DNA from: Gemmatimonadota bacterium
Lineage (GTDB): Bacteria > Gemmatimonadota > Gemmatimonadetes > Palauibacterales > Palauibacteraceae
Length of the DNA stretch: 14,294 nucleotides
Assembly: GCA_046758745.1 (NCBI GenBank)
Contig: JBHIAV010000060.1
Coordinates: 1 to 14,294, forward strand
Reading direction: 5' to 3'
The notes below the pieces were generated by a model, which made no database searches, had not been told where the DNA came from, and saw only the letters and a list, made by a program, of their open reading frames with translations. Made by a program: the position numbers and the translations under genes. Positions 415 through 14,228 of the stretch are shown here, in pieces. Every line of letters begins with the position of its first letter. The first letter of the stretch is position 1.

Positions 415-756
415 TTAGTCGAGTGCAGCCAGACCCTCGACCCCGGTCCGGATCTTCGTCACGCCGAGGACGGGATGAACGGAAACGATGCCATCACCCC
501 GCCGCCCTGTCCGGGCCGCCCGGGCGATGATCTCCGTGTACATGCCGCATTGCTCACCTGCGCATATGAAATGCACCATCGCTTTGTCCACGAATTCGGT
601 GCCTTCCTCGAAAGAGATCTTCGCGTACGCGGGATCCACGCCAGACCCGATCGCGTGCACCCACTCGACGCTGAGCCGGGGAACCCCCGACTCCTTCAGG
701 CAGTGCACCACGCGATCGAGCATCTCCGTGCGCACGATGGCACGTATCTCCACCAT
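415..756 (-). CDS. P-II family (GlnB-like) protein, metal-efflux-associated PII type
   Basis: MVEIRAIVRTEMLDRVVHCL...ARAARTGRRGDGIVSVHPV..KIRTG matches the PII N-terminus, B-loop (TGxxGDG) and C-loop (RIRTG). ATG 756 gives 113 aa; an alternative ATG at 792 has a purine-rich RBS. Lies directly downstream of cusA. Confidence 0.88.
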   Translation of the reverse strand: MVEIRAIVRTEMLDRVVHCLKESGVPRLSVEWVHAIGSGVDPAYAKISFEEGTEFVDKAMVHFICAGEQCGMYTEIIARAARTGRRGDGIVSVHPVLGVTKIRTGVEGLAALD

Positions 757-814
757 CGCCTGAGATTCTTCAATCCTCTTGGTCTTCCCCATCCTTCTCT
801 CCCGATTGACCGCG

Positions 815-3800
815 CTAGTCGGCCGGAACGAGCGCCATCTCATCTCGCAAGGCCTCACGGACGGCCTCCTCGGGCCGGCGTCGCACCTGCCACTGGCGCC
901 ACAGGAGGTAGATCGCGGGTATGACGGCCAAGGTGAGCCCGGAACCTGACAACATTCCTCCCACCATCGGCGAGGCGATCCGCTTCATCACATCCGCCCC
1001 GGTTCCGCTGCTCCAGAGGATCGGAGCCAGACCAGCTGTGATCGCCGCGAAGGTCATCACGACCGGCCGAAGCCTGTCCAGAGCGCCCTCGCGCACGGCC
1101 TCGGCCACGTCGGATGCCGTCCGCATCCGGCCTTCTAGGCTCCGGCGGTGGAACGATTCGTCCAGGTAGATCAGCATCACAACGCCCGTCTCCGCGACCA
1201 CGCCGGCCAGGGCGATGAACCCCACCCAGACGGCGACGCTGGTGTTGTAACCCAGCAGCCATAGGAACCACACGCCACCCACCAGCGAGAACGGGAGCGT
1301 GAGCATGACGATGAGAGACTCGAAGACCCCGCGGAAGTTGAAATAGAGCAGCAGAAAGATGATGCCCAGCGTGACGGGCAGGACGATACGCAGCTTCTGC
1401 GTCACCCGCTGCATGAACTCGTACTGTCCGCTCCAGGTTAGGGTGTAGCCGGGCGGCAGGCTCAGCTGCTCGGCGACCACCCGCTTGGCCTCGTCCACGT
1501 AACCACCCACGTCGCGACCTGTGATGTCCACGAACACGATCGTGACGGGAAAGGCATTCTCGGTCTTCACGGCCATCGGCCCCTGGAGAGGCTCGATCCG
1601 CGCCACCTGGCCCAGGGGAATCTGGGCGCCGCTCGGCGCGGGAATAATCACCTCGCGCAGCTTCTCAATGTCGTCGCGAAGCTCGCGGGGGTATCGCACG
1701 TTCACCGCGTAGCGCTCCCGTCCCTCCACGGTGATTGTCGCGTTTATGCCGCCGACCGTGGCCATGATGGCGCTGTGGATATCGCCCACGTTGAGGCCGT
1801 ACCTGGAGGCTTCTTCGCGGTCGATGTTTATGTCGACGTAATAGCCCGACACGCCTCGCTCTGCGAAGACGCTCCGCGTTCCCGGTACCTGCTGCATGAT
1901 CCGTTCGACCTGCTCTCCCAATGCTTGCAGGGTGTCCAGATCGGGACCGAATATCTTGATTCCCACCGGGGTGCGGATACCGGTGGCGAGCATGTCGATG
2001 CGGCCCTTGATCGGCATCGTCCAGGAGTTCGTCACTCCCGGCAACGCCACCTCCCGGTCCATTTCCGCGATCAAGCGCTCGTACGTCATGCCCGGCCGCC
2101 ACTTCTCCTTCCGTTTGAGCGTGATCGTGGTCTCCAACATGTCGAGGGGGGCGGGGTCGGTGGCGGTCCCTGCTCGGCCCGCCTTCCCGAGCACCGTCTC
2201 CACCTCCGGGAAGGAAGCGAGCACGCTGTCCTGGTAGCGCATGATCTCCCTCACCTGCGCGATGGAGACGCCTGGTACCGTCGACGGCATGAAGAGCAGG
2301 GATCCCTCCTTCAGGGGCGGCATGAACTCGCTCCCGAGGCGTTGCCAGGGAAAGACGGTCCCCGCCAGGATGACCCCAGCTGCGGCGATGACCAACCAAG
2401 GCTGCCGCAGCACGAAGTCGATGACCGGACGGTAGGCGCGGCGCAGCGCGCGGTTCACGGGGTTCTGCGCCTCCGGCCGGACCCGCCCCCGCACAAGATA
2501 GCCCATGAGCACCGGAACGAGCGTGATGGCCAGCAGCGCCGATCCCCCCATGGCGAACGTCTTGGTGTACGCCAGGGGCTTGAAGAGACGACCCTCTTGC
2601 TGCTCCAGGGCGAAGACGGGCAGGAAGCTGAACGTGATGATGAGAATGGAGAAGAAGAGCGGGGCCCCCACCTGCTTGGCACTCTCGTACACGATCTCCC
2701 AGCGGGACGTTTCCCCGTCGGCGCGCTCCAGGTGCTTGTGCATGTTCTCGATCATCACGATCGCGCCGGGAATCATGGCGCCGATGGCGATCGCGATCCC
2801 GCCCAGGCTCATGATGTTCGCGCCTACGCCGATCACTCGCATCACGATGAAGGAGATCAGGATGCCGAGCGGAAGCGTGATGATGGCCACCAGCGCCGAG
2901 CGGAAGTGCAGCAGGAAGATCACCGCGACAATCGCGACGATCGAGGACTCCTCGAAGAGCTTGTGCGTCAGGGTTTCAATCGCCTGATCGATCAGGTCGC
3001 CGCGGTCATAGGCTGGCCGCAGCCGGGTTCCGGGCGGGAGACCCTCCTGGATCTCGACCAGCCGCTCCCTGATGGCCTTGATCGTCTTCAGCGCATCGGT
3101 GCCGAAGCGCATCACCACGATACCCGCCACCACCTCGCCCCGCCCGTCGAGGTCGGCCGCGCCGCGCCGGGGCGCCGGCCCGATCTGGACCGTGGCCACG
3201 TCGCCGACTCGGATCGGAGTCCCGTTGGGGGTCGCTCCGACTGCCACGTTCTCGATGTCCTCTATGCCTTTGAAGTATCCGAGACCGCGGATCATGTACT
3301 CGCGCCCGCCCATCTCCAGCACTCGCGCCCCGATGTCGATGTTGTGGGCGCCGATCGCCTGCGCCACGCGGGTTACCGGGATGTTGAAGGCCCGGAGCCG
3401 CTCCGGATTCACTTCGACCTGGTACTGCTTCACGAAGCCACCCAGGCTCGCCACCTCGGAGACGCCGGGGACGGCCGTGAGCTGGTAACGGATGTACCAG
3501 TCCTGGAGCGTGCGCAGTTCCGACAGATCCAGGCTGTCCGACTCCAGCACGTATTCGTAGACCCAGCCGACCCCGGTGGCGTCCGGACCGAGGGTGGGCT
3601 CGACCCCGGGCGGGAGCTGCTGTCGGATGCCGTTCAGATACTCCAGGACGCGGGAGCGGGCCCAGTAGATGTCGGTCCCGTCCTCGAAAATCACATACAC
3701 CAGGCTGAGCCCGAAGAAGGAGTAGCCGCGCACGACACTCGCTCCAGGAACCTTGAGCATCTCCGAGGCGATGGGATACGTGACCTGGTCCTCGACGATG

Positions 3801-3976
3801 TCCGGCGCCTGCTCGCGGAAGTCCGTCTGGACGATGACCTGGACGTCAGAGAGGTCCGGAATCGCGTCGAGGGGAGTGCGGCTGATTGCTATCAAGCCGC
3901 CACCGACCACCGCGACGGTCGCAAGGAGAACGAGGAACCGGTTCTGGAGCGACCAGGCGATGATCCGGTTAATCAT
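815..3976 (-). CDS. cusA: CusA/SilA-type heavy-metal efflux RND permease (Cu(I)/Ag(I) type) with altered proton-relay residues
   Basis: 1053 aa with signatures DAIPDLSDVQVIV, GPDATGVGWVYEY, NIMSLGGIAIAIG, EGRLFKPLAYTKT and GSEFMP. Met triad M563/M613/M662 corresponds to E. coli M573/M623/M672. ATGA overlap with cusB at 3973-3976. Confidence 0.97.
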   Translation of the reverse strand: MINRIIAWSLQNRFLVLLATVAVVGGGLIAISRTPLDAIPDLSDVQVIVQTDFREQAPDIVEDQVTYPIASEMLKVPGASVVRGYSFFGLSLVYVIFEDGTDIYWARSRVLEYLNGIRQQLPPGVEPTLGPDATGVGWVYEYVLESDSLDLSELRTLQDWYIRYQLTAVPGVSEVASLGGFVKQYQVEVNPERLRAFNIPVTRVAQAIGAHNIDIGARVLEMGGREYMIRGLGYFKGIEDIENVAVGATPNGTPIRVGDVATVQIGPAPRRGAADLDGRGEVVAGIVVMRFGTDALKTIKAIRERLVEIQEGLPPGTRLRPAYDRGDLIDQAIETLTHKLFEESSIVAIVAVIFLLHFRSALVAIITLPLGILISFIVMRVIGVGANIMSLGGIAIAIGAMIPGAIVMIENMHKHLERADGETSRWEIVYESAKQVGAPLFFSILIITFSFLPVFALEQQEGRLFKPLAYTKTFAMGGSALLAITLVPVLMGYLVRGRVRPEAQNPVNRALRRAYRPVIDFVLRQPWLVIAAAGVILAGTVFPWQRLGSEFMPPLKEGSLLFMPSTVPGVSIAQVREIMRYQDSVLASFPEVETVLGKAGRAGTATDPAPLDMLETTITLKRKEKWRPGMTYERLIAEMDREVALPGVTNSWTMPIKGRIDMLATGIRTPVGIKIFGPDLDTLQALGEQVERIMQQVPGTRSVFAERGVSGYYVDINIDREEASRYGLNVGDIHSAIMATVGGINATITVEGRERYAVNVRYPRELRDDIEKLREVIIPAPSGAQIPLGQVARIEPLQGPMAVKTENAFPVTIVFVDITGRDVGGYVDEAKRVVAEQLSLPPGYTLTWSGQYEFMQRVTQKLRIVLPVTLGIIFLLLYFNFRGVFESLIVMLTLPFSLVGGVWFLWLLGYNTSVAVWVGFIALAGVVAETGVVMLIYLDESFHRRSLEGRMRTASDVAEAVREGALDRLRPVVMTFAAITAGLAPILWSSGTGADVMKRIASPMVGGMLSGSGLTLAVIPAIYLLWRQWQVRRRPEEAVREALRDEMALVPAD

Positions 3977-5226
3977 CGTCGGGCTCCCCCCGAACTGGTG
4001 TCCCGCGCCGAGGGTCGGTCCTCCGAATCCCCGGCGGAGCCGCTGCCCACGTGCTGCATCCCCACCATCTCGCCACCCGTTCCGGCCAGCCGGGACTCGG
4101 CGTCGACCAGGAAGTTGGCGGAGGCCACGATCGTCTCCCCCTCGGACACTCCTTGGAGGATGTGTACGCGGCCTCCCGCGCGGGACCCGAGGACGACCTC
4201 CCGGGGAACCAACATGCCCTCCTCGTCTCGGAGAAAGACCACGTTCCGCTCACCGGTCACGACGACGGCCTCGAGGGGAACCGTCACTCCATCGGCGATC
4301 GCCTGCACGTCGAAGAAGACTGTCGCGAACATTCCCGGCTTCAACCGCAGATCCGGATTCGGCACGCTGACGCGCACCCGGTTCGTCCGGCTCTTCACGT
4401 CGACGGTCGGGTACACGAAGCTCACGGTTCCCATCACGTGCTCGCCCGGATACGCAGCCAACTCGATGTGGGACCGGGATCCTTCCCGCACGAACTGCAG
4501 ATCCTGCTCGAACAGCTCGCCCTCGACCCAGACCATCGAGAGGTCCGCGATCCGGTACAGACGCATCCCGGGCATCACACGCTGGCCCTCCCACACGTCC
4601 TTCTCCAGGACGATGCCGCTCGCCGGCGCGACCAGGGTGAGCGTCTTCATCACCTCCCCGGTGCTCTCCAGTCGATCGATCTGCTCGGAGGTGATATCCC
4701 AGTATCTCAGTCGGCGCCGGGCCGCTTCGAGCATGTCTCCGGCGCTAGCCCAGGCCTCGCCCGCCGTCGGATCAACTTGCGAGACGAGACGCTTGGCGGT
4801 GAGTAGCTCCTCCTGGGCGGCTACGAGCATGGGGCTGTACAGGGAGAGGAGCGGCTGTCCCTTCCCCACGGTCTCCCCGGTGGTATTCACATACAGCCGC
4901 TCCACGAATCCGCTGATCTTAAGGGTGACATCGGAGACATCGGGTTCCGGTGCCACGACAAAACCGACCGTGCGAATCGTCCGCATGAGGGTCTCGCGGC
5001 GGGCCGTCGTGTAGATCACACCGAGCGCTTGCTCCTGCGCGGGGGTGAGGTGCACGGGCCGGCGGATCGCCGCCCCCGTGCTGTCCATCGCCCCCTGCGT
5101 GCCACCGGCCTGCATCCGGGCATGTTCCTCGGCCGTCATGCCGAGCGTGTCTGAACTTCCTTCGTCCGGTCCGCAGGCCACGAGGAGAACCGCAGTCAGC
5201 AGCAGGGCGGCCGCTCGCACCTTCAT
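3973..5226 (-). CDS. cusB: CusB-type RND periplasmic adaptor (membrane fusion protein), lipoprotein
   Basis: 417 aa with lipobox LVAC (Cys18), YSPMLVAAQEE hairpin, IADLSMVWVEG, LKPGMFATV and ANFLVDAESRL. Met/His-rich termini. ATGA overlaps with both neighbours. Confidence 0.95.
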   Translation of the reverse strand: MKVRAAALLLTAVLLVACGPDEGSSDTLGMTAEEHARMQAGGTQGAMDSTGAAIRRPVHLTPAQEQALGVIYTTARRETLMRTIRTVGFVVAPEPDVSDVTLKISGFVERLYVNTTGETVGKGQPLLSLYSPMLVAAQEELLTAKRLVSQVDPTAGEAWASAGDMLEAARRRLRYWDITSEQIDRLESTGEVMKTLTLVAPASGIVLEKDVWEGQRVMPGMRLYRIADLSMVWVEGELFEQDLQFVREGSRSHIELAAYPGEHVMGTVSFVYPTVDVKSRTNRVRVSVPNPDLRLKPGMFATVFFDVQAIADGVTVPLEAVVVTGERNVVFLRDEEGMLVPREVVLGSRAGGRVHILQGVSEGETIVASANFLVDAESRLAGTGGEMVGMQHVGSGSAGDSEDRPSARDTSSGGARR

Positions 5227-6530
5227 CTGACACCTCCCGGGTCGGCGCCGACAAGCGCCTCCACCTGCGCAAGAGCGCGCTGGTAGTCGGCGGCGAGGCG
5301 CACGCGATCGATCTCGTATCGGTTCACAGTCATCTCGTTCTGTACCAGCGTCATGAAATCCACCCTCCCAACCCGGTAGGCAGAGAGCGCCGATTCTACG
5401 GCAGCCCGAGCCTGTGGCAGCACCGAGGTCGCGTAGAGTTGCGTGAGGTTCCGGGCTCGTTCCGCCTCTGCCCTGAGCTCGGTGATCCGCGCGTAGGTCT
5501 CGTTATAGAGGTCGATTTCCCTGGCCTCCTCCATGCTCAGCGTGGCGCTCATCTGACGGCGAAGCGGGAGCTGGCGTGAGCCTGCCCACACTGGAATGCT
5601 GACCCCCAGCATCAGGGTGAGGAAGTCATCGAACTGCGGACGCTGTCCATAGCCGAGGGTGACCGTGAGATCGGGATAGAGGGCTCGTCGAGCCGCCTTG
5701 TAGCCGGCTTCCGCCGCCTGCGCCCGCGCTCGGGCGGCGCGCAGGGCGGGACGCCGCCGGGCGGCCAGGGCCATCAGCGAGTCCACCGGCGGCAGGTCGC
5801 CCGCCGGCACCGGCAGTTCGAGGGCTCCGACCGGCGCGGTGGCCTGGCGGCCGAGAAGCGCGTTGAGTCGGGCGGCCATCGCCAGGCGATCCTGCTCCAT
5901 CACGGTGATCTCCTCGGTCATCTGGGCGACCGACACCTGGGCCTGGAGAACATCCTGCTGAAGGCCAGTCCCCACGCTGTACATGGTAGAGGACACATCG
6001 AGGAATTCGCGTAGCAGCTGCCGCGTGTCCTCCAGGATCCCGAGGGCGCGGTCCACGTAGGCCAGCCCGTAATAGACGGACTTGACGCCGGCGACGAGCG
6101 ATACCCCGGACTCCTCCGCCTCCAGCTCCGCCGCCTGGGCGAGGTACCGTGCCCGCTCCTCGGCGAACCCCAGCTTGCCCGGCCACGGGAAGCGCTGCGT
6201 GAGCTGCACGCTGTTCATCGTCATGGATTGGTCGGTCCTCCCCAGGTCCACGACCGGCCGATTCAGGAAACCGAAGGAGAGCTGCGGGTCGGGGAGCGCG
6301 CCGGCCTGGGGAATTCGCTCAATCGCAGCGTCCGCGCGAAGGCGGACCGCCTGCAAGAGCGGATTCGCCTCCCGAGCGAGCGCGACTGCATCCTCGAGGG
6401 TGAGGGTGTCTGCAGCCTGCTGGGCGAACGTCGGGCGCGAGAAGGCCAGGAGCGCCGTCGCGAGAGGAGGCATGCACACCCACCTCATCGGTAGCCCACT
6501 AATCGCTGGTGTGGCAAGATGATTCCCCAT
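5223..6530 (-). CDS. TolC-family outer membrane efflux protein (CusC role)
   Basis: Signal peptide ending TFA-QQ, LTLEDAVALAREANP, LPDPQLSFG, QRFPWPGK, YPDLTV and AYRVGRVDFMTLV (two OEP repeats). First gene of a C-B-A operon. Start uncertain (ATG 6530 or 6488). Confidence 0.93.
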   Translation of the reverse strand: MGNHLATPAISGLPMRWVCMPPLATALLAFSRPTFAQQAADTLTLEDAVALAREANPLLQAVRLRADAAIERIPQAGALPDPQLSFGFLNRPVVDLGRTDQSMTMNSVQLTQRFPWPGKLGFAEERARYLAQAAELEAEESGVSLVAGVKSVYYGLAYVDRALGILEDTRQLLREFLDVSSTMYSVGTGLQQDVLQAQVSVAQMTEEITVMEQDRLAMAARLNALLGRQATAPVGALELPVPAGDLPPVDSLMALAARRRPALRAARARAQAAEAGYKAARRALYPDLTVTLGYGQRPQFDDFLTLMLGVSIPVWAGSRQLPLRRQMSATLSMEEAREIDLYNETYARITELRAEAERARNLTQLYATSVLPQARAAVESALSAYRVGRVDFMTLVQNEMTVNRYEIDRVRLAADYQRALAQVEALVGADPGGVR

Positions 6531-6661
6531 CCAATGAAGGGGGGTCTGTCCGAATGGCGGTGGACCGACCCGGTTCTGAGGAGGCTTCTTTCTGTCATCC
6601 GGCTCCGCGGCAGAGACGGCCCCCCTGCCAAGGAGCCGTGCTACTTGATCGTCTGGGCCTC

Positions 6662-6715
6662 AATGTGAGTTGGGCGGGCTTAAGATTCCCCTAAGTCGCC
6701 TCTAAGATTTCTTAG
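6662..6715 (-). promoter_or_regulatory. Putative response-regulator boxes and -10 element for the tolC-cusB-cusA-PII operon
   Basis: TAAG recurs at 6681, 6692 and 6703 (11-bp period: TTAAGATTCCC/CTAAGTCGCCT/CTAAGATTTCT). On the minus strand the proximal box ATCTTAA is followed 12 nt later by CACATT (6667-6662). Same geometry as 10570-10631. Confidence 0.65.
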
Positions 6716-6880
6716 TTATCGGACCCGGGGAGAAGACGACTTGAAGACGGCGAGCACATGGGGGCTGGTGAGATCAAGTCGAGGAGAAGTTTATGAAGTC
6801 AACGGACCCAAACTGAAGACCTGCGGCACAGCCAGGCCGGTGAAGGCGAGATTCGGGCGGCCCGGTTGGCTCGCCGATCC

Positions 6881-7738
6881 TCAGTTGATGCGCGGGTTCG
6901 GGTACGACGGCACCGTGACGAGGCCCGGAATCCCGAACACCCGGGAGAAGCCGACAATGAGTTCGACGTTGCCTCGCCCCCGCTCCCACTCGTCGAGCCG
7001 CGTGGCAAGCCCGAAATCGAGTACGCTCAGGTTCGTCAGCTGCCAGCGGGACCCCAGCTCCAGCCAGACGCGGCTGCGGCCTGAACCGTTCGGCACCTCG
7101 GCGTAGATGTCCCCCATGATCGCCCTGCTGAACAGGCCGATCGGATAGTCGAACGCCATGCCCCCCAGCCAGAAGTCGCCGCCGTCGGCCGCGCTCGCTG
7201 CCGCGTAGCCGCCGTTCAGGTGGATGCGAAGGCGCCCGAAGGACCGGGTCGCGAGGCCCTTCCCCGAGATCGCCCAATTCTCCCTTCCGAGTCTCCCGGC
7301 TCCCGGACTCTCCACATCCAAACGCGCGGCGAACGCAGGCCAGCTCCAGGTCTCGCGGTTGAAGTTGTACAGGAGGTGCGCGCCAGCGCTCTCGATCCCC
7401 CCTGCCGTGCTTCCCTCGGCGTCCTCCCCTCCGGCCTTGATCTCCAAGCCTACCTGCCCGTTCAGGAAGAGCCCCGTCTTCAGCTCACCGATCCCGGACA
7501 CGCCGTCTCCACCCTCTCGGAGCGCACCCCGAATCCCCAACTCGACCTCCCACTCCCGGAACTTCACGGGGTACGCGTCCTCGACCTGAATCGGCCGGTC
7601 GAGGTCGGCCGAACGGAAGTCTTCCTGTGCGGTGACCGGTGATACGGATCCGGCGATCGCAGCAAGGCCAGCCGCCACCGGTCCGAGCAGGCCCGCCCGA
7701 AAAGGTCCGGCAGACGCCGAGGCGATTCGATTCTTCAC
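6881..7738 (-). CDS. Putative outer-membrane beta-barrel (porin/transporter-like) protein
   Basis: 285 aa with signal peptide (..VTA-QED) and many alternating amphipathic strands (WEVELGIRG, HLLYNFN, LRIHLNGGY, WLGGMAFDYP, WLELGSRWQL, LDFGLATRL, LIVGFSRVF). GTGA overlap with the upstream gene at 7735-7738. Confidence 0.75.
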   Translation of the reverse strand: MKNRIASASAGPFRAGLLGPVAAGLAAIAGSVSPVTAQEDFRSADLDRPIQVEDAYPVKFREWEVELGIRGALREGGDGVSGIGELKTGLFLNGQVGLEIKAGGEDAEGSTAGGIESAGAHLLYNFNRETWSWPAFAARLDVESPGAGRLGRENWAISGKGLATRSFGRLRIHLNGGYAAASAADGGDFWLGGMAFDYPIGLFSRAIMGDIYAEVPNGSGRSRVWLELGSRWQLTNLSVLDFGLATRLDEWERGRGNVELIVGFSRVFGIPGLVTVPSYPNPRIN

Positions 7739-8865
7739 CGATCCATCCCTTCGTGCCGGGGGTGTGCGGGCACGCTGTCGGTCGGCAGCTTCTCCAGCCG
7801 GACACCCAGCGGCATCCTGAACTCCTCCATCGTGGCCAAGCGCGCGTCGGGATGACCCTGCGGGAGCCAGCTTCCGTCGGGCAGTCGCGTGGGGACACGC
7901 ATGGACCCCTCGCTCATGCTGTGTCCGGTCATCGGCATGCCGGGCGCGGTCACGGCGTCCTGAGCCGCGTAGGTCATGTTCCGACGCATCCTCTCGATCT
8001 CCGCCTCCTTCTCGGCCCGCGAGAGCGAGGCGTCGGCCATGATGTCGTTCACCACGTCATGCATCATGTGGAGGTTGTCGAAGATCTGGGCCGCGGCCGG
8101 CAACATGCGCGAGAAGCGAGGGGCCATCTCGGCCGCCAGGGGCATCACCTTCGGCGGATTCCTCAGCACCGAGTCCTTGAAGACGGCGATGACCCGATTA
8201 AGCTCCTGCCGTCGAGCCTCCGGATCGGGCTCCATGAGCGCCTCGTAGACCGCCGCGTGATGCCAGTGGTACGCCCACAGGATGCCATTGATGCCGGGGT
8301 ATTTCTTGCGAAAGGTGCCGGCCCAGGCGCCGCCTCCCTCCATCCAGCGGTGACCGTATCCGCGCGTGGAAAACGCGGTGTTGGCGCGCGACAGGTAGTA
8401 CGCGATCGCGCGCTCGCCGGCAGTCTTCTTATCCCTCACTCGATCGTCTGTGAGGATGTCGTAGAGCTGGGAGTGGAGCATGTGGGTCCAGTCCATGGCG
8501 CGCCCGGTCTCGAACGCCATCTTCGACCAGTTGGGCGCGATAACCTCGGCGGGTGGCTCGAAGCGCGGCGGATGGTCCAGGTACTCCACGACACGCGCGC
8601 GGAACGTCTCCATCTCCGCCACCGCGTCCTCTCCGCGATTCAAGAGGGTCTCGTACGCTCCGAAGTGCGCGTAATGTGCCGCGTAGAAGGACCGCGCCGC
8701 CTCGTTGTAGGTATCGTAGAACGCGAAGTTGTAGGCGGCGGGAAGCCGGTAGACCTCGTTCCGCTGCGGCGCGCTGCTGCAGGCAGAGAGAAACAGCGCG
8801 GCTCCCAGAAGCGTCACGCGATCAGCGCGGGCCGGGATCACATCCCGGAAAGTCATCTTCTCCAT
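7735..8865 (-). CDS. Uncharacterised His/Met-rich lipoprotein with four HxxH helical repeats; putative metal-binding protein
   Basis: 376 aa with lipobox LSAC (Cys29). HxxH at 64/67, 128/131, 200/203 and 266/269, plus a Met/His-rich tail (GMPMTGHSMSEGSM, HPRHEGM). Translationally coupled to the barrel gene. Confidence 0.85.
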   Translation of the reverse strand: MEKMTFRDVIPARADRVTLLGAALFLSACSSAPQRNEVYRLPAAYNFAFYDTYNEAARSFYAAHYAHFGAYETLLNRGEDAVAEMETFRARVVEYLDHPPRFEPPAEVIAPNWSKMAFETGRAMDWTHMLHSQLYDILTDDRVRDKKTAGERAIAYYLSRANTAFSTRGYGHRWMEGGGAWAGTFRKKYPGINGILWAYHWHHAAVYEALMEPDPEARRQELNRVIAVFKDSVLRNPPKVMPLAAEMAPRFSRMLPAAAQIFDNLHMMHDVVNDIMADASLSRAEKEAEIERMRRNMTYAAQDAVTAPGMPMTGHSMSEGSMRVPTRLPDGSWLPQGHPDARLATMEEFRMPLGVRLEKLPTDSVPAHPRHEGMDR

Positions 8866-8894
8866 ACCGAACCCCTGTCCTACCAGCCGGTCCT

Positions 8895-8939
8895 TCTCTC
8901 TCTCACTCTCTCTCTCTCTCTCTCTCTCTCACTCACTCA
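8895..8939. repeat. (TC/GA)n dinucleotide microsatellite
   Basis: (TC)5-AC-(TC)12-ACTCACTCA on the + strand, filling most of the 71-nt gap between two co-oriented genes and abutting the upstream TGA. Confidence 0.97.
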
Positions 8940-9494
8940 GACGTCTCGACTTCCCAGCGGAAGCAAGCCCAAGCCAAGTCCTCCGGCCAGACCCACCAGG
9001 AGGCCGATCACGCCCCATTCGGCGGCACTCCGGTTGCGTTCGATTCGGATGTCGTCCGCCCGGACCCCTCCATCGCCCACGTCATGGCGGTACGAAGCCC
9101 AACTCTCCGTGGCCAGCTTGTGTTCGTTCTCATCGACGCTCCTGCGGGCCCCCAGCACAGTCAGGTCCAGCGTGGCTACCGCGTCCCCATCGGCGGCAAT
9201 TGCCGTCACCCGGTAGGCTCCAGAGGTGACGCCTAGCGGAATGATCAGTTCGAGCGAGAACCTGCCCGCGGAATCTGACTGCACCTGCCGGAGCTCGTAC
9301 TCGCGCAGCGCCCCCACGAGCCTTAGAAGGTAAGTTTGCTTCTTGCTGAAGTCGCTGCCGTGGAGCTCCAGTACCTCACCCGCCACGACGGACGACTGCG
9401 GGCTCGTCAAGACCGCATCCTCGTGCGAGACGGCCCGCCCTGCCGATGCGAGCAAGAAGCTCAGAAACAGCGTGAGGACCTTTGCCACATTCAT
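8937..9494 (-). CDS. Secreted Ig-like-domain protein with C-terminal membrane anchor and probable mature N-terminal His
   Basis: 185 aa, AAAGGA RBS. Signal peptide ends AVS|HED. Beta-strand-rich core (VVAGEVLELHGSDF, SDSAGRFSLELIIP, GAYRVTAIA) and C-terminal TM WGVIGLLVGLAGGLGLGLL. Starts 18 nt after the cyt b stop. Confidence 0.8.
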   Translation of the reverse strand: MNVAKVLTLFLSFLLASAGRAVSHEDAVLTSPQSSVVAGEVLELHGSDFSKKQTYLLRLVGALREYELRQVQSDSAGRFSLELIIPLGVTSGAYRVTAIAADGDAVATLDLTVLGARRSVDENEHKLATESWASYRHDVGDGGVRADDIRIERNRSAAEWGVIGLLVGLAGGLGLGLLPLGSRDV

Positions 9495-9512
9495 ACTTTG
9501 CCGTCCTTTGGG

Positions 9513-10553
9513 CTACATGCCAAGATGCTGCTGGCGCGCACCAAACGCCCCGTACAGCCAGAGGGCGAGGACCGCGAGCCCGAGCAGGAGCCCCACCCAC
9601 CCCACCCAGCCGTGCCTTCCAGGCCTATCGTCGCCCCCGCGATCCAGGAGCGGGATGGTTGCGAGAAAGCCGAAGAGGATGGCGGGTCCGATAATCATGC
9701 CCCAGGTGCCCAGGAGGTTCTCGAGTCCGTAGACCCAGAGCACCGGCCAGAACGGCTTGGTGACCTCCACACCGGCAACGGCCGGATAGCCCAAGTTTTC
9801 GGGTGCAACGACCGCCAGGAGCCCTATGGTCGCGAAGGCGAGCGATGCGACGCCCGCAAGCCGTATGGCATGTGTCCGAAAGACGCTAGTCTCCGAAGCA
9901 TCGGCGTGAATACCCAGATGGCGGATAAGCCAGAAGTGAAGTCCCATGAGGCCGATGAGAGCGAGCGGCAGGAGGCTCGTGTGAAGGCTGAAGATCCGCG
10001 AGAGCAACGAGGTGCTCCGCGTGAAGCTCTCGGTGAAGAAGGCACCCAGCGCGCCCGTGAGCTCGCCTCCTGTCACGAAATGCGACAGCGCCTCGAATCC
10101 TTCCTGGTCGTTACGCAGTGCTGTGCCAGTCACGATGAGGAGGAAGAGTAGCCCGGCCATTCCGACGCCGGCCCACCAGGTAACCTCACGCGGCTTCTTG
10201 TAGGAGCGTCGCCAAAACACGTAGATGAGGTGTGTCGTGATGGTCACGGTCACCGCGCCCGCGGACCAATAGTGGAGGCTCCGCACCCAGTCCCCGAGCG
10301 GCGCACGAGCGATGATATACAGGACGCTGTCGTGGGCTCCGATCGGGTTTGGATTGTAGAACTGCGCGAGGTAGATGCCGGTGAGCAGAAGGAGAATAAT
10401 GAAGAATGCGGTCAGCCCTCCCAACATGTACGTCCAGCGGTTGGTCACTTTCGGGATGGGATAGTCGAGCGCCTTGAGCGCTGCTCGCTCCGCTAGCCAG
10501 CTGGCGTACGAATCGCTCTCGCCTGCCTCGTCAGCCACGTTCACCCCCGACAT
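9513..10553 (-). CDS. Cytochrome b of the bc1/b6f family (b6 + subunit IV-like fusion, ~7 TM), orphan
   Basis: 346 aa with YMLGG, TGIYLAQFYNP, RSLH94..H108, YKKPREVTWWAG and H191..H206 (four heme ligands, 13/14 spacing). KPFWP sits at the PEWY position. No Rieske or CxxCH protein in the window. Confidence 0.92.
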   Translation of the reverse strand: MSGVNVADEAGESDSYASWLAERAALKALDYPIPKVTNRWTYMLGGLTAFFIILLLLTGIYLAQFYNPNPIGAHDSVLYIIARAPLGDWVRSLHYWSAGAVTVTITTHLIYVFWRRSYKKPREVTWWAGVGMAGLLFLLIVTGTALRNDQEGFEALSHFVTGGELTGALGAFFTESFTRSTSLLSRIFSLHTSLLPLALIGLMGLHFWLIRHLGIHADASETSVFRTHAIRLAGVASLAFATIGLLAVVAPENLGYPAVAGVEVTKPFWPVLWVYGLENLLGTWGMIIGPAILFGFLATIPLLDRGGDDRPGRHGWVGWVGLLLGLAVLALWLYGAFGARQQHLGM

Positions 10554-10569
10554 AGAAAGGACGGAGTGA

Positions 10570-10635
10570 AGCCTAGCCGACTATGGACTAAGATCGCCCC
10601 AACTTCTCGTTAAGATCTCTTTAGAATCTTACAAT
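10570..10635 (-). promoter_or_regulatory. Putative response-regulator boxes and -10 element for the cyt b operon; divergent promoter region
   Basis: CTAAGAT (10588) and TTAAGAT (10610) lie 22 bp apart, with an inverted copy AATCTTA at 10625-10631. On the minus strand the proximal box is followed 12 nt later by TAGGCT (10575-10570). Plus-strand TACAAT at 10630-10635 could serve the regulator gene. Confidence 0.65.
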
Positions 10636-10772
10636 CGCCCTGGAAACCGAAGGAGAGGGTTCTTAGCGGGGCCTCATCGCCTATTTTGGGATCGCAGCGA
10701 GGCAAGATTTTCACCTCCAGAGGACCGGGGAGGAGGATCGATCCGTCCCCCTTTCCGGCTCGGCGTAGGGCC

Positions 10773-11456
10773 ATGAAGATACTTCTCGTCGAAGATGACG
10801 CTCGGGTGGCCCGCTTCATCGAGAAAGGACTGCGGGAGGAGGGTCATGTGGTTGACCTGGCTACCGACGGCGTTGAAGCCGTGGCGCTCGCGCACGTGAC
10901 CGACTACGACGTGATCGTGCTCGACGTGATGCTCCCCGGCAAGAGCGGCTTTCACGTGACCTCCGAGCTTCGCTCCCAAGGCAACCCCACCCCGATCCTC
11001 ATGCTGACGGCCCGGGATTCCCGGGAGGACATCGTGCAGGGCCTCGACGTCGGGGCTGACGACTATCTGACTAAGCCGTTCGACTTCGAGGAGCTGCTAG
11101 CGCGCATCCGCGCGCTCGCCCGGCGCATTGGCGCTATCGACGAGGGCACGCTCCGCTTCCAGGACATCGAGTTGGATCGACTCCAGCACGAAGCGCGGCG
11201 CGGCGGCCAGCGCATCAACCTCACGCCGACCGAGTTCAAACTCCTCGAGGCCCTGATGCGCAAGCCTGGACAGGTGGTGAAGCGCCTCGAGCTCTTGGAT
11301 CGCGTGTGGGGGATGAGCTTCGATCCGGGCACGAACCTGATCGATGTGCACATGGCGAACCTTCGGAAGAAGCTGGAGAAGGAGGGGGGGAGCCGGGTTA
11401 TCTCCACTGTCCGCGGTGTCGGATTCCGGCTGGCGAGCGTAGAAGGCCATGAGTAA
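10773..11456 (+). CDS. OmpR-family response regulator (CusR/CzcR-like)
   Basis: MKILLVEDD..YDVIVLDVMLP..PILMLTAR..GADDYLTKPF receiver domain and LTPTEF..IDVHMANLRKKL..TVRGVGF winged helix. ATG 10773 (227 aa) is preferred over the ORF-track start at 10686. Confidence 0.96.
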   Translation: MKILLVEDDARVARFIEKGLREEGHVVDLATDGVEAVALAHVTDYDVIVLDVMLPGKSGFHVTSELRSQGNPTPILMLTARDSREDIVQGLDVGADDYLTKPFDFEELLARIRALARRIGAIDEGTLRFQDIELDRLQHEARRGGQRINLTPTEFKLLEALMRKPGQVVKRLELLDRVWGMSFDPGTNLIDVHMANLRKKLEKEGGSRVISTVRGVGFRLASVEGHE

Positions 11457-12921
11457 GCTCGGTCGTTCCTTTCGGGGGCGCCTTGCCCTCCGCTTCGGAG
11501 CCACCGTCATGCTGGTCGCCGCCGCAGGCTCCCTCTTCGGTTACCTGGTACTGCGCAGTCTGCTAATCGACCAGCTCGACAGGACGCTTCTGCGTTTGGC
11601 AGGGATCGAGGCAGCTGCCGCCGCCGACACTCCGGACTCCACAGTACATTTCCACGACGAGGTCTTCCTCGCTGTCGGCCCCGGACACAAGGCGATCCTG
11701 AGCCGTTACGCGGAGGTGTGGAGCCTGGAGGGAGAACCGGTCCTGCGAACCGAGAACCTGGCAGGCGGCAATCTTCCGCTCGACGGGGAGGTTCGAAGCC
11801 GCGTCGTCTCTACCGGTGACCCGGAGCTCTTCAGCTTCGAGTGGGGGGGCACCGAATACCGGAGCGTTCTCTACCCCCTGGGTCTGGTGGGTCCGCAGCA
11901 TGAGCCGCATCTGCTTCAGGTGGCCGCTGCCACCGACCAGACAAGGGCTGTGCTCGGCAATTTCTTGAAGGTGTTGGCCGTGCTTGCGTTCCTGGGGGCT
12001 CTGGCGGGTCTAGGATTGGGATGGTGGGTGGCCGGATCCGCCATCCGGCCGGTGATGGAGATCACTCGGCAGGCGGAATCCCTCGAGATGTCGCGGGGCA
12101 AGCACCGGATCATTGCGCAGGCAGAGACCGAGGAGATGAGCCGACTCGTTTCCGTTCTGAACTCCATGCTGGGAAGGATCGATACCGCATTCGAAAGTCA
12201 GCGACGCTTCCTCGCCGATGTCGGACACGAAATCCGCACGCCCCTCACCGTGCTTCGCGGAGATGTCGAGGTTGCCCTCCGCCGGCATCGCTCACTGGAA
12301 GAGTACGAGGCGATCCTGGGACAGACGTTGGAGGATCTCAAGGATGTCTCAGCTCTGGCCGATGACCTCATCACCCTGGCCCGCGGAGAGAGTGGCGCCC
12401 TGACCCCCGAGTTTCGCCCCATCCAAGCGGAGAACCTGCTCCGCGAGGTCGCCGAACGGTACCAGGGAGCCGCCGAGAAAGGGGGAGCCTGCCTCAAGAT
12501 TGGAAGCGACCCATCGGCCGTGGTCGTGGGGGACCGTACGCTGCTCGCGCGGGCCTTGGGCAACCTTGTGGACAACGCCATCAAATACGGAGGCGACGGA
12601 GAGATCACCGTTGGAGCCAGCTTGGCGGACCATGGCAGCGTCGAGATCCGCGTGGCAGATGAGGGCCCCGGAGTCCTGCCAGATGAGCTGCCGCACCTCT
12701 TCGACCGCTTTGTCCGCGGGGAAGCGGGCCGGCGGGTTGGGAGAGGCTCCGGGCTCGGCCTATCAATCGTCAAGGCGATCGTGGAGAGCCATGGCGGAAC
12801 GATCCAAGTGGATAGCGTCGTCGGCCGCGGAACGACTTTTCGGCTCCACCTACCTGCCGTGGCTCACAGGCAAATCCGATCGCGGAAGGTCGATGTCGTG
12901 GGGACCCACTCCGGAGATTAG
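11449..12921 (+). CDS. Sensor histidine kinase (2 TM, periplasmic sensor, HAMP, HisKA, HATPase), heavy-metal-sensor type
   Basis: 490 aa with H-box FLADVGHEIRTPL, N-box NLVDNAIKY, G1 DEGPG, F-box LFDRF and G2 GSGLGL. 8-nt overlap with the regulator. Confidence 0.96.
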   Translation: MSKLGRSFRGRLALRFGATVMLVAAAGSLFGYLVLRSLLIDQLDRTLLRLAGIEAAAAADTPDSTVHFHDEVFLAVGPGHKAILSRYAEVWSLEGEPVLRTENLAGGNLPLDGEVRSRVVSTGDPELFSFEWGGTEYRSVLYPLGLVGPQHEPHLLQVAAATDQTRAVLGNFLKVLAVLAFLGALAGLGLGWWVAGSAIRPVMEITRQAESLEMSRGKHRIIAQAETEEMSRLVSVLNSMLGRIDTAFESQRRFLADVGHEIRTPLTVLRGDVEVALRRHRSLEEYEAILGQTLEDLKDVSALADDLITLARGESGALTPEFRPIQAENLLREVAERYQGAAEKGGACLKIGSDPSAVVVGDRTLLARALGNLVDNAIKYGGDGEITVGASLADHGSVEIRVADEGPGVLPDELPHLFDRFVRGEAGRRVGRGSGLGLSIVKAIVESHGGTIQVDSVVGRGTTFRLHLPAVAHRQIRSRKVDVVGTHSGD

Positions 12922-13619: not shown

Positions 13620-14105
13620 TTAGTGCTCCCGTTCCGATGCCGCGTCGGCCGCCGCACAGAGACGTGTGCAGACATCTCGCAGAGAATGCTGCCATTCACC
13701 CCGCAGGGAGACACCCAGCTCCACACGTCCGGTGGGAATCGCGATTCGGCAATGCGTCACGTGCGGGAGGTCGAGCAGCTCCCTTCTCAGCGCCTCGAGA
13801 CGTCCGGAAGAGCCGACGAGCCAGGTCGTCACGCGCGCCTCGGCCATATGCACCGAATAGCCGCGACGCTCGAGGATCCGTATAACCTCTTCCAACCACG
13901 GTAGGGCGTCGACCTCGATCGACACCGTGTCTCGCATGGGATTGACCGCCGCCCCTCGCACCCCATCCAGCTTCCTCAGAGTCCGCTCGAGCGGTGCTCC
14001 CTCCGACGCACAGCCAAGCTCCGAGATCGTGAGGCAGACTCGGAAGCCGGACGCGCCGGCCACGGCGTACGGCGTTTGCTCTTCAGGGGAACCGGTTTCG
14101 CTCAT
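13620..14105 (-). CDS. Protein with two degenerate HMA (ferredoxin-like) domains
   Basis: GGAGG RBS before ATG 14105. LTISELGCASEGAPLERTLRKLDGVRGAAVNP..GYSV is an HMA domain with CxxE instead of CxxC. The second repeat (LRRELLDLPHVTHCRIAIPTGRVEL) lacks the CxxC loop. Confidence 0.72.
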   Translation of the reverse strand: MSETGSPEEQTPYAVAGASGFRVCLTISELGCASEGAPLERTLRKLDGVRGAAVNPMRDTVSIEVDALPWLEEVIRILERRGYSVHMAEARVTTWLVGSSGRLEALRRELLDLPHVTHCRIAIPTGRVELGVSLRGEWQHSLRDVCTRLCAAADAASEREH

Positions 14106-14228
14106 GCTTCCTCCGGCGCCGGATCCCGCCGACCTGCGATGGGCCTCGTCGCCTCCGGGCAGGTCGCTCTCCGTCCGAAGCACCAGGATCGCCCGTCCCA
14201 GCAGTGCAGCGCTCCTCCCGTGGAACTA

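Follow-up and report, generated by a model that had tools for sequence, protein, structure and literature searches.

The 14,294-nucleotide stretch of DNA analyzed here (the window; contig JBHIAV010000060.1 of a Gemmatimonadota bacterium, GenBank assembly GCA_046758745.1) encodes on its minus strand a b6-type cytochrome b (P0001) and, directly behind it, a protein that we refer to as p185 (P0002). The gene order on this strand is cytochrome, p185, P0003, P0004, a 350-bp gap and then CusC-, CusB-, and CusA-type genes, and a two-component system of the heavy-metal type is divergently encoded (Table 1). Within the cytochrome b superfamily, to which it belongs, the cytochrome departs from the Rieske/cytochrome b proteins in its Qo/cd-helix signature, in the absence of a Rieske gene in cis, in its placement outside the canonical clade, and in its scores below the curated family cut-offs. 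Its obligatory partner is p185, which in some cases is fused to it.

Table 1. Features of the window, with positions counted from its first nucleotide
Feature	Position	Strand	Basis or remark
Cytochrome b gene (P0001)	9513–10553	−	346 amino acids; b6-type, 'DQExxEAxxH' clade
H94 codon, helix B ligand of the outer heme (bL/bp)	10272–10274	−	Alignment to b6
H108 codon, helix B ligand of the inner heme (bH/bn)	10230–10232	−	Alignment to b6
cd-helix segment G143-TALRNDQEGFEALS-H158	10080–10127	−	Stands in for canonical GYxLPWxQxxxW(G/A)xxV
H191 codon, helix D ligand of the outer heme	9981–9983	−	Alignment to b6
H206 codon, helix D ligand of the inner heme	9936–9938	−	Alignment to b6
P267-F-W-P270, PEWY Qo-motif position in the ef loop	9744–9755	−	Codon check, alignments
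C-terminal QQHLGM	9516–9533	−	Predicted periplasmic side
Partner gene p185 (P0002)	8937–9494	−	185 amino acids; 18 bp downstream of the cytochrome b gene
p185 predicted signal peptide, residues 1–23, ending AVS	9426–9494	−	Read from sequence
p185 His24 codon, predicted first mature residue	9423–9425	−	Conservation
p185 Ig-like β-sandwich, mature residues 1–93	9147–9425	−	AlphaFold2
p185 C-terminal transmembrane helix, after the disordered tether	8967–9026	−	Model helix, mature residues 134–153
P0003, His/Met-rich predicted lipoprotein	7735–8865	−	376 amino acids; near the cytochrome in 12/67 loci
P0004, secreted protein	6881–7738	−	285 amino acids; in 11/67 loci
CusC-, CusB-, and CusA-type RND efflux genes	815–6530 (5223–6530, 3973–5226, and 815–3976)	−	TIGR00914, HlyD_D23, OEP
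Shared intergenic control region	10554–10772	.	AT-richer; TAAGATC at 10589 and 10612, TAGAATC at 10623
Divergent heavy-metal-type two-component system	10686–12921	+	Kinase 11449–12921

A b6-type cytochrome that retains the heme ligands

The open reading frame (ORF) of the cytochrome had been picked out in an earlier, sequence-only reading of the window. The ORF is real and encodes 346 residues, but it lies on the minus strand, the plus-strand frame over the same positions being interrupted by stops. The start codon is uncertain, and the database copy of the protein has 341 residues, five fewer than the ORF. Every residue named in the earlier reading was checked by codon translation.

P0001 scores above the Pfam cut-offs for both PF00033 (79.6 bits, cut-off 27.2) and PF13631 (59.3 bits), and its closest solved relatives are cytochromes b6 (phmmer against the PDB, best E 1e-23). 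For PF00032, P0001 has no reported match at E ≤1e-2 (0.01) and relatives have weak ones (E 2.7e-6 to 4e-3), and the phmmer alignments of P0001 to long cytochromes b extend to residue 302–335. Seven transmembrane helices are predicted from hydropathy and from an AlphaFold model, with basic loops on the predicted cytoplasmic side and acidic loops outside. The model, built from 24 close relatives, was used for the helix count and the fold family only; it is weak, with a predicted local distance difference test (pLDDT) score of 55, and its top 50 Foldseek matches are cytochrome b or b6 chains in 50 of 50 cases. Among the NCBIfam models the highest score is that of NF040969 (ExtP; 135 bits against a cut-off of 290), with b6 at 119 against 325 and QcrB at 64 against 500, and no NCBIfam cut-off is reached by the window cytochrome or by any of 30 diverse members of its clade.

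All four heme histidines are retained, as had been read from the sequence: the codon-checked H94, H108, H191, and H206 pair with the heme-ligand histidines of cytochrome b6 in the phmmer alignments. The helix B pair has a spacing of 14 and the helix D pair one of 15, which we take to be the b6-type pattern. The four-helix N-terminal domain with two heme-histidine pairs on helices B and D is, as judged from the sequence, present in P0001. In the alignment used for the column counts given here and below (73 non-canonical and 28 canonical rows), H94 is kept in 72 of the non-canonical rows and in 28/28 canonical ones. M43 occupies the position of the cysteine in the b6 'YCLGG' motif, which agrees with the previous assignment of Met-43 to the heme ci cysteine position; P0001 contains no cysteine and so has no cysteine for heme ci.

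A rewritten Qo motif and predicted Rieske-docking surface

The canonical cd-helix/Qo signature G-Y-x-L-P-W-x-Q-x-x-x-W is absent from the window protein, which has GTALRNDQEGFEALSH, and the b6 segment GYSLPWDQIGYWAV aligns with G143-TALRNDQEGFEALS-H158, i.e. with GTALRNDQEGFEAL-S-H158. The replacement of PEWY by P267-F-W-P and the rewriting of the segment after helix C, both proposed in the sequence-only reading, hold at the codon level, with the TALRNDQEGFEALS segment present. Position 147, which is Pro in 24 of the 28 canonical rows, is Lys or Arg in the clade. Glu is found at position 151 in 66 of the 73 non-canonical rows, a position that is variable in the canonical ones, and at position 154 in 67/73, where 22 of the 28 canonical rows have Trp; position 158 is His in 68/73 non-canonical and Val or Ile in 25/28 canonical rows. 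E151, E154, and H158 are signatures of the clade. Position 278 is Glu in 60/73 non-canonical rows, compared with Leu in 12 and Arg in 8 of the 28 canonical rows. His is present in 53/73 non-canonical rows at position 343 (with 11 gaps) and in 54/73 at position 228, and M346 is present in 27/73. At position 268 Pro is found in 43/73 non-canonical rows, and P-P-W-x is the commonest motif of the clade at the Qo position. Among 24 relatives with a mean column identity of 70%, the invariant residues are M43, H94, H108, D149, Q150, E151, E154, H158, H191, H206, P267, W269, P270, and H343.

The changed residues are located on the predicted periplasmic face, in the cd helix, the ef loop, and the C terminus, which would correspond to the area where the Rieske head docks in bc complexes. 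From the alignment, an acidic/histidine patch comprised of E151, E154, and H158 in the cd helix, E278 in the ef loop, and H343 at the C terminus appears clade-wide in place of the canonical hydrophobic and aromatic residues. Of the additional His and Met residues that had been assigned to the outer face, H158 and the C-terminal H343 are clade-wide, but H74 occurs in 16/73 non-canonical rows. M43 occurs in 20/73, and as features of the whole clade neither M43 nor H74 is borne out; both are lineage-specific and therefore unable to carry a general mechanism. The PFWP motif alone is not proof that quinol oxidation has been lost, because natural Qo motifs vary widely according to the text of PMC4122944.

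A large clade outside the Rieske-linked cytochromes b

At least 503 homologs of the window cytochrome were found at E ≤1e-5 among 8000 candidates scored. The best 120 are 65–100% identical to it, and those that have a name are Gemmatimonadota. When representatives at 50% identity were searched exhaustively, 3229 matches were obtained at E ≤1e-3 and 91 clusters at E ≤1e-30. Most of the 150 best representatives carry G[TS]xL[KR]xDQE[GA]xEAxxH, TKPxW[PYL], and a C-terminal xHxGM, and sequences with GYLLPWDQ and P(E/D)WY turn up in the representative list only near E 1e-27 to 1e-24. In a tree of 101 rows, an unrooted quick search with sampling biased towards the query, the window protein is positioned outside a 28-row canonical clade (Shimodaira–Hasegawa-like approximate likelihood ratio test (SH-aLRT) support 98), which contains all Rieske-linked controls, and inside a 9-row clade with support of 100. 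The comparison with PetB and QcrB suggested in the sequence-only reading thus leaves the protein outside the canonical clade. The clade to which it belongs is large and uncharacterized.

With one exception, the family has no Rieske gene in cis. Loci were drawn from one genome per species. A Rieske motif of the bc type lies close to the cytochrome in only one of 68 family sequences, as opposed to 9 of 11 canonical loci, in which the Rieske box sits directly upstream of the cytochrome; these counts bear out the expectation that relatives in the clade would lack Rieske neighbors. Pfam searches of the neighbors at 18 loci gave a Rieske domain only in a canonical locus (L073), and a separate Pfam run gave one in a family locus (L015). 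The cytochrome had also been described as the first gene of its operon with no Rieske gene upstream, which is what is seen in the window, where intergenic DNA (10554–10772) precedes it and faces the divergent response-regulator gene. In relatives, other genes often precede the cytochrome, such as those for a multicopper oxidase, CopA, or a cupredoxin, and never one for a Rieske protein. The gene in L015 (11558–12025, minus strand) encodes a Rieske protein with a weak match to the PetC anchor, and it is located between genes for Big_5 Ig-like proteins with no cytochrome b adjoining.

The partner protein p185

The cytochrome had been taken to stand alone, a view that the relatives overturn: a profile hidden Markov model built from 53 homologs locates p185 just behind the cytochrome, in the same orientation, at 65 of 67 family loci and at none of the 11 canonical ones, and the two family loci with no match (L007 and L066) are truncated by contig ends. 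In three representatives from other lineages the cytochrome is naturally fused to a p185-like module (hhalign probabilities 97.2, 97.2, and 95.3). The fused forms retain the QQHLGM-type motif internally, and at the junction of two of them stands 'AYA-H', which resembles a signal-peptidase site. In three further sequences of another subclade (P0142, P0143, and P0151) the same type of cytochrome continues at its C terminus into a long helical extension of acidic and repetitive sequence, with no p185-like sandwich, and the periplasmic module therefore varies across the clade.

His is found at the predicted first position of mature p185 in 65 of 66 sequences, the exception (L064) being frame-broken, and among 53 mature sequences it is the sole invariant column other than glycine. 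The AlphaFold2 model of p185 shows a sandwich of eight strands with pLDDT ~98 over residues 11–90, followed by a linker that is disordered at residues 106–120 (pLDDT <50). The hydrophobic C-terminal stretch is conserved across the homologs, and the tether contains at least three Met, often in MPGM-like repeats, in 21/53 members and at least two His in 30/53. p185 has no match to a Pfam or NCBIfam family, with a weak MG2 match in 35/53 members; Foldseek gives generic macroglobulin, CARDB, and Ig sandwiches, and the listed relatives are all annotated as hypothetical. By these searches p185 appears to belong to no described family.

Two assignments of p185 were considered and rejected. Membership of CopC (PF04234) or YcnI (DUF1775, PF07987) has no match at E ≤1 in 53 of 53 members, and neither appears in the Foldseek top 50. 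A cytochrome f-like identity, suggested by the similar β-sandwich and C-terminal anchor, is unsupported; cytochrome f is likewise not in the Foldseek top 50, and p185 lacks CxxCH because it has no cysteine.

Copper context of the window and of family loci

At least one recognizable copper or heavy-metal gene is present in the flanks of 42 of 67 family loci compared with 1 of 11 canonical controls (Fisher p = 0.0018). The commonest neighbor is a multicopper oxidase (16/67 loci), with DUF305 in 15/67, a CopA-type ATPase in 10/67, a heavy-metal response regulator in 9/67, a heavy-metal sensor kinase in 7/67, CusB in 5/67, and CusA in 3/67.

In the window, the Cus-type genes are well supported, with 1149 bits for TIGR00914 (CusA/CzcA; cut-off 701), E 8e-76 for HlyD_D23, and E 3e-42 for OEP. 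The best models for the two-component pair, TIGR01387 (245 bits, cut-off 279) and TIGR01386 (258 bits, cut-off 293), are both below cut-off. The set has the make-up of a CusCBA exporter with a CusRS-type regulatory pair, for which the metal specificity is a prediction. The longest ORF of the response regulator (10686–11456, plus strand) has a TTG start and 29 extra residues, and the actual start is probably the ATG at 10773, where the receiver domain begins (MKILLVEDD). In the intergenic region the TAAGATC at 10612 and the TAGAATC are 11 bp apart, and these repeats could represent a candidate response-regulator box. A consensus scan over 6400–10900 gave no sigma-70-like promoter and no terminator.

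P0003 contains four HxxH-type motifs (HYAH, HMLH, HWHH, and HMMH) and a Met/His-rich C-terminal tail, and its gene is overlapped by that of P0004 by 4 bp. Neither protein has a match in Pfam, NCBIfam, PDB-sequence, or Atlas searches. The 350-bp gap (6531–6880) between P0004 and the outer-membrane factor gene contains no convincing small ORF on the minus strand, and the block from the cytochrome to P0004 and cusCBA may be separate transcription units.

Comparison with known systems

The best sequence and fold match of P0001 is to b6 and subunit IV of b6f, and to the 'green-clade' Rieske/cytochrome b proteins. P0001 shares with the b6-type cytochromes the four heme histidines, the 14/15 spacing, the seven helices, and the KPRE(x)TW and xLGG motifs. 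In contrast to b6f, it has the b6 and subunit IV parts in one chain, Met in place of Cys35 (heme ci), a rewritten cd helix and Qo motif, no Rieske gene in cis, a score below the NCBIfam b6 cut-off, and a position outside the canonical clade. ExtP, the b-type cytochrome of a Geobacter selenite/tellurite cluster, is matched over its b6-like domain, but P0001 is far under the ExtP cut-off, and the text of PMC5877670 describes a 23-kDa protein that adjoins the Rieske protein ExtO in another context.

For p185, the closest comparison in layout is with YcnI, which according to the text of PMC8424229 has a signal peptide, an N-terminal His, a copper-binding domain, and a C-terminal helix. Like YcnI and CopC, p185 combines a signal peptide, a predicted first-residue His, and a β-sandwich with copper-related neighborhoods, and it shares the C-terminal membrane helix with YcnI. 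By analogy, the N-terminal-His layout of p185 would be the one through which YcnI, CopC, and further proteins of the histidine-brace type bind copper. Unlike these proteins, p185 has no conserved counterpart of the Glu/Trp of YcnI or of the second His/Asp of CopC, and its partner is a cytochrome b and not CopD.

Cytochrome b homologs with no adjacent Rieske gene or with obscure function have been described previously, including the 'PDWF-FeS' branch without a Rieske protein (text of Kao and Hunte 2014, PMC4122944) and subfamilies K, H, and G', of obscure functions (text of Dibrova et al. 2017, PMC5600118). In these respects they resemble the window clade, but the running text on those lineages, compared without figures or supplements, has no mention of DQExxEAxxH, an N-terminal-His partner, or a copper context. 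No published description of the clade or of the pair of cytochrome b and N-terminal-His protein was found in a search that left most subscription journals, figures, and supplements outside.

Di-heme transmembrane metal reductases pass electrons through two stacked b hemes to a metal ion on the outside. The principle proposed below would be the same as in these enzymes (cytochrome b561/Dcytb, ferric-reductase-domain, and PepSY_TM proteins), with stacked b hemes leading to a metal at the outer face. They are, however, a different fold family, of which some relatives of P0001 show only sub-threshold matches (PF01292 and PF01794), and their donor is ascorbate or NAD(P)H compared with a presumed quinol in the window module.

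Proposed function and alternatives

We propose that the cytochrome and p185 are the two subunits of a cytochrome b module that works without a Rieske protein and connects the quinone pool with a copper site in the periplasm, a reading to which we give slightly less than an even chance; for the copper mechanism as such, a hypothesis, the chances appear roughly balanced. The cytochrome would be the membrane core, in which the two-heme transmembrane wire of b6-type cytochromes is retained, and p185 would be a tethered head, with a secreted Ig-like sandwich, a flexible Met/His-rich linker, a C-terminal anchor, and an N-terminal His, that takes over the place of the Rieske head. The predicted N-terminal His, for which the YcnI layout is a precedent, would bind copper, and p185 would present this copper at the remodeled outer face by docking on the Glu/His patch near heme bL, allowing electron exchange of the quinone pool with copper in the periplasm. 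Cus pumps transport Cu(I) and Ag(I) specifically. The likeliest direction would be from menaquinol to Cu(II), giving Cu(I) for the co-encoded CusCBA exporter, and is favored because it is thermodynamically downhill and would feed this Cu(I)-specific pump. The contact between the subunits, the binding of copper, the use of quinone, and the direction of electron flow are what we infer from the sequences. The repurposed transmembrane electron wire envisaged in the sequence-only reading is consistent with the position outside the canonical clade, the lack of a Rieske gene in cis, and the copper context, but the wire does not stand alone.

A more specific form of this proposal, which we regard as unlikely, is that the Rieske head was replaced in evolution by an Ig-domain protein whose N-terminal His brings copper into the old Qo/docking pocket, where it would form a redox copper site with the Glu/His patch beside heme bL; the complex would then be a quinol:Cu(II) oxidoreductase, maybe still capable of Q-cycling. 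If this were true, copper would be respired or detoxified by a bc-type machine without an iron-sulfur cluster or a c-type cytochrome.

Several observations weigh against the copper module. The Glu/His-rich patch would be as suitable for iron or for a quinol proton relay as it is for Cu(II), and the structural model of the cytochrome is of low confidence (pLDDT 55). In p185 there is no second conserved ligand, as besides His1 only Gly columns are invariant in the 53 sequences, and p185 matches neither CopC nor DUF1775, which are kept as a layout analogy only. The third cytochrome-p185 fusion has 'AYA-D', with Asp replacing the histidine, and one lineage has Val before the His (…AAV|H…) at the p185 cleavage site; Val makes a poor signal-peptidase site, and a free N-terminal His is therefore uncertain in that lineage. 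The control set for the copper enrichment is small (11 loci) and from other phyla, and 25 of the 67 family loci have no recognizable flanking copper gene, for example a Longimicrobiales synteny group next to fumarase. Finally, the orphan PetC-like Rieske gene of L015 is 2.6 kb from the cytochrome, on the opposite strand.

Gemmatimonadota use menaquinone, and the bc1 complexes of Acidithiobacillus ferrooxidans are able to run in reverse. The same module could be reversed, as an oxygen-independent cuprous oxidase in which p185-bound Cu(I) is the electron donor and quinone is reduced by a Q-cycle that the proton motive force drives backwards, complementing the neighboring multicopper oxidases. 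The genes of these Cu(I) oxidases are the commonest neighbors of the pair, the Met-rich tethers suit Cu(I), and the P-P-W-x of the clade resembles the PPWY of the A. ferrooxidans complexes (text of PMC4122944); however, electrons would have to move uphill from Cu(I) to menaquinone, and a working Qo quinone site would be needed when the Qo residues are those that have been altered, which makes this direction rather improbable. The carboxylate-rich character of the conserved patch, together with the loci that have no recognizable copper genes, the fusion of the cytochrome to unrelated helical periplasmic tails in other subclades, and an MtrB/PioB-type porin and cytochrome c encoded upstream of the pair in L001, would also suit a module of cytochrome b and p185 that has no Rieske protein and for which copper is not the substrate. 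Such a module could provide a quinol-linked route to or from iron or a redox protein, or the Glu/His patch could be a rebuilt quinol site with the p185 His in the hydrogen-bonding role of the Rieske His. Against this stand the enrichment of copper and heavy-metal genes around the pair and the combination of an N-terminal His with Met/His-rich tethers, which is typical of copper proteins, and we consider it unlikely.

That the protein belongs to an ordinary Rieske/cytochrome b complex, with the Rieske protein and cytochrome c encoded elsewhere and p185 as a mere accessory subunit, is improbable in our judgment. Rieske genes are not always found beside cytochrome b genes (text of PMC5600118), the orphan gene of L015 is nearby, and Qo motifs are naturally variable (text of PMC4122944), but 67 of 68 family sequences have no Rieske gene in cis, whereas 9 of 11 canonical loci do have one; across the clade, other residues take the place of the cd-helix Trp and of the hydrophobic docking/Qo residues; and the protein is outside the canonical clade, with the NCBIfam cut-offs missed by it and by 30 clade members. 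A decaying, functionless paralog, to which the copies split by an insertion sequence in L065–L067 and the broken frames in L025 and L064 might point, is scarcely credible, being contradicted by conservation: there are at least 503 homologs, 24 relatives share a mean column identity of 70% and show no variation in the heme ligands or the new motifs, and the gene pair is itself conserved.

The bc-complex cytochrome b is among the best-studied membrane proteins, and its Rieske partnership is treated as defining. A protein that keeps the heme wire and has a Glu/His patch and an obligatory N-terminal-His partner in place of the Rieske surface would be a new solution to transmembrane electron transfer, and the clade would provide a natural experiment on what the Qo/Rieske interface needs to work. 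The steps of periplasmic copper homeostasis recognized at present are those of multicopper oxidases and efflux pumps; a redox step linked to quinone would join them if copper proves to be the substrate of the proposed module.

Further observations in the window and in related loci

In three Marinacidobacterales loci (L065, L066, and L067) an insertion sequence with an rve-type transposase interrupts the cytochrome b gene (about 7995–10383 in L067); p185 is still downstream and a multicopper oxidase gene is upstream. In L001, genes for an MtrB/PioB-type outer-membrane porin (893 amino acids), a cytochrome c, and DoxX (3638–7330) lie just upstream of the cytochrome/p185 pair and cusCBA, an island that hints at an outer-membrane electron conduit. 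A gene for a SnoaL-like/DUF4440 protein (NTF2 fold) follows p185 immediately in L008 (9607–10050) and L042 (9594–10097), is one gene further on in L058 (10374–10991), and is on the opposite strand in L036 (9862–10560, minus strand). An unannotated protein of 417 amino acids follows the multicopper oxidase in 5/67 loci.

At the left end of the window, a gene for a PRA-PH-type pyrophosphohydrolase is encoded on the plus strand (53–382), and a gene for a P-II-like protein (415–858, minus strand; PF00543, 36.5 bits) overlaps the end of cusA. Near the right end, a minus-strand gene (13620–14183) encodes a protein with a heavy-metal-associated (HMA) domain.

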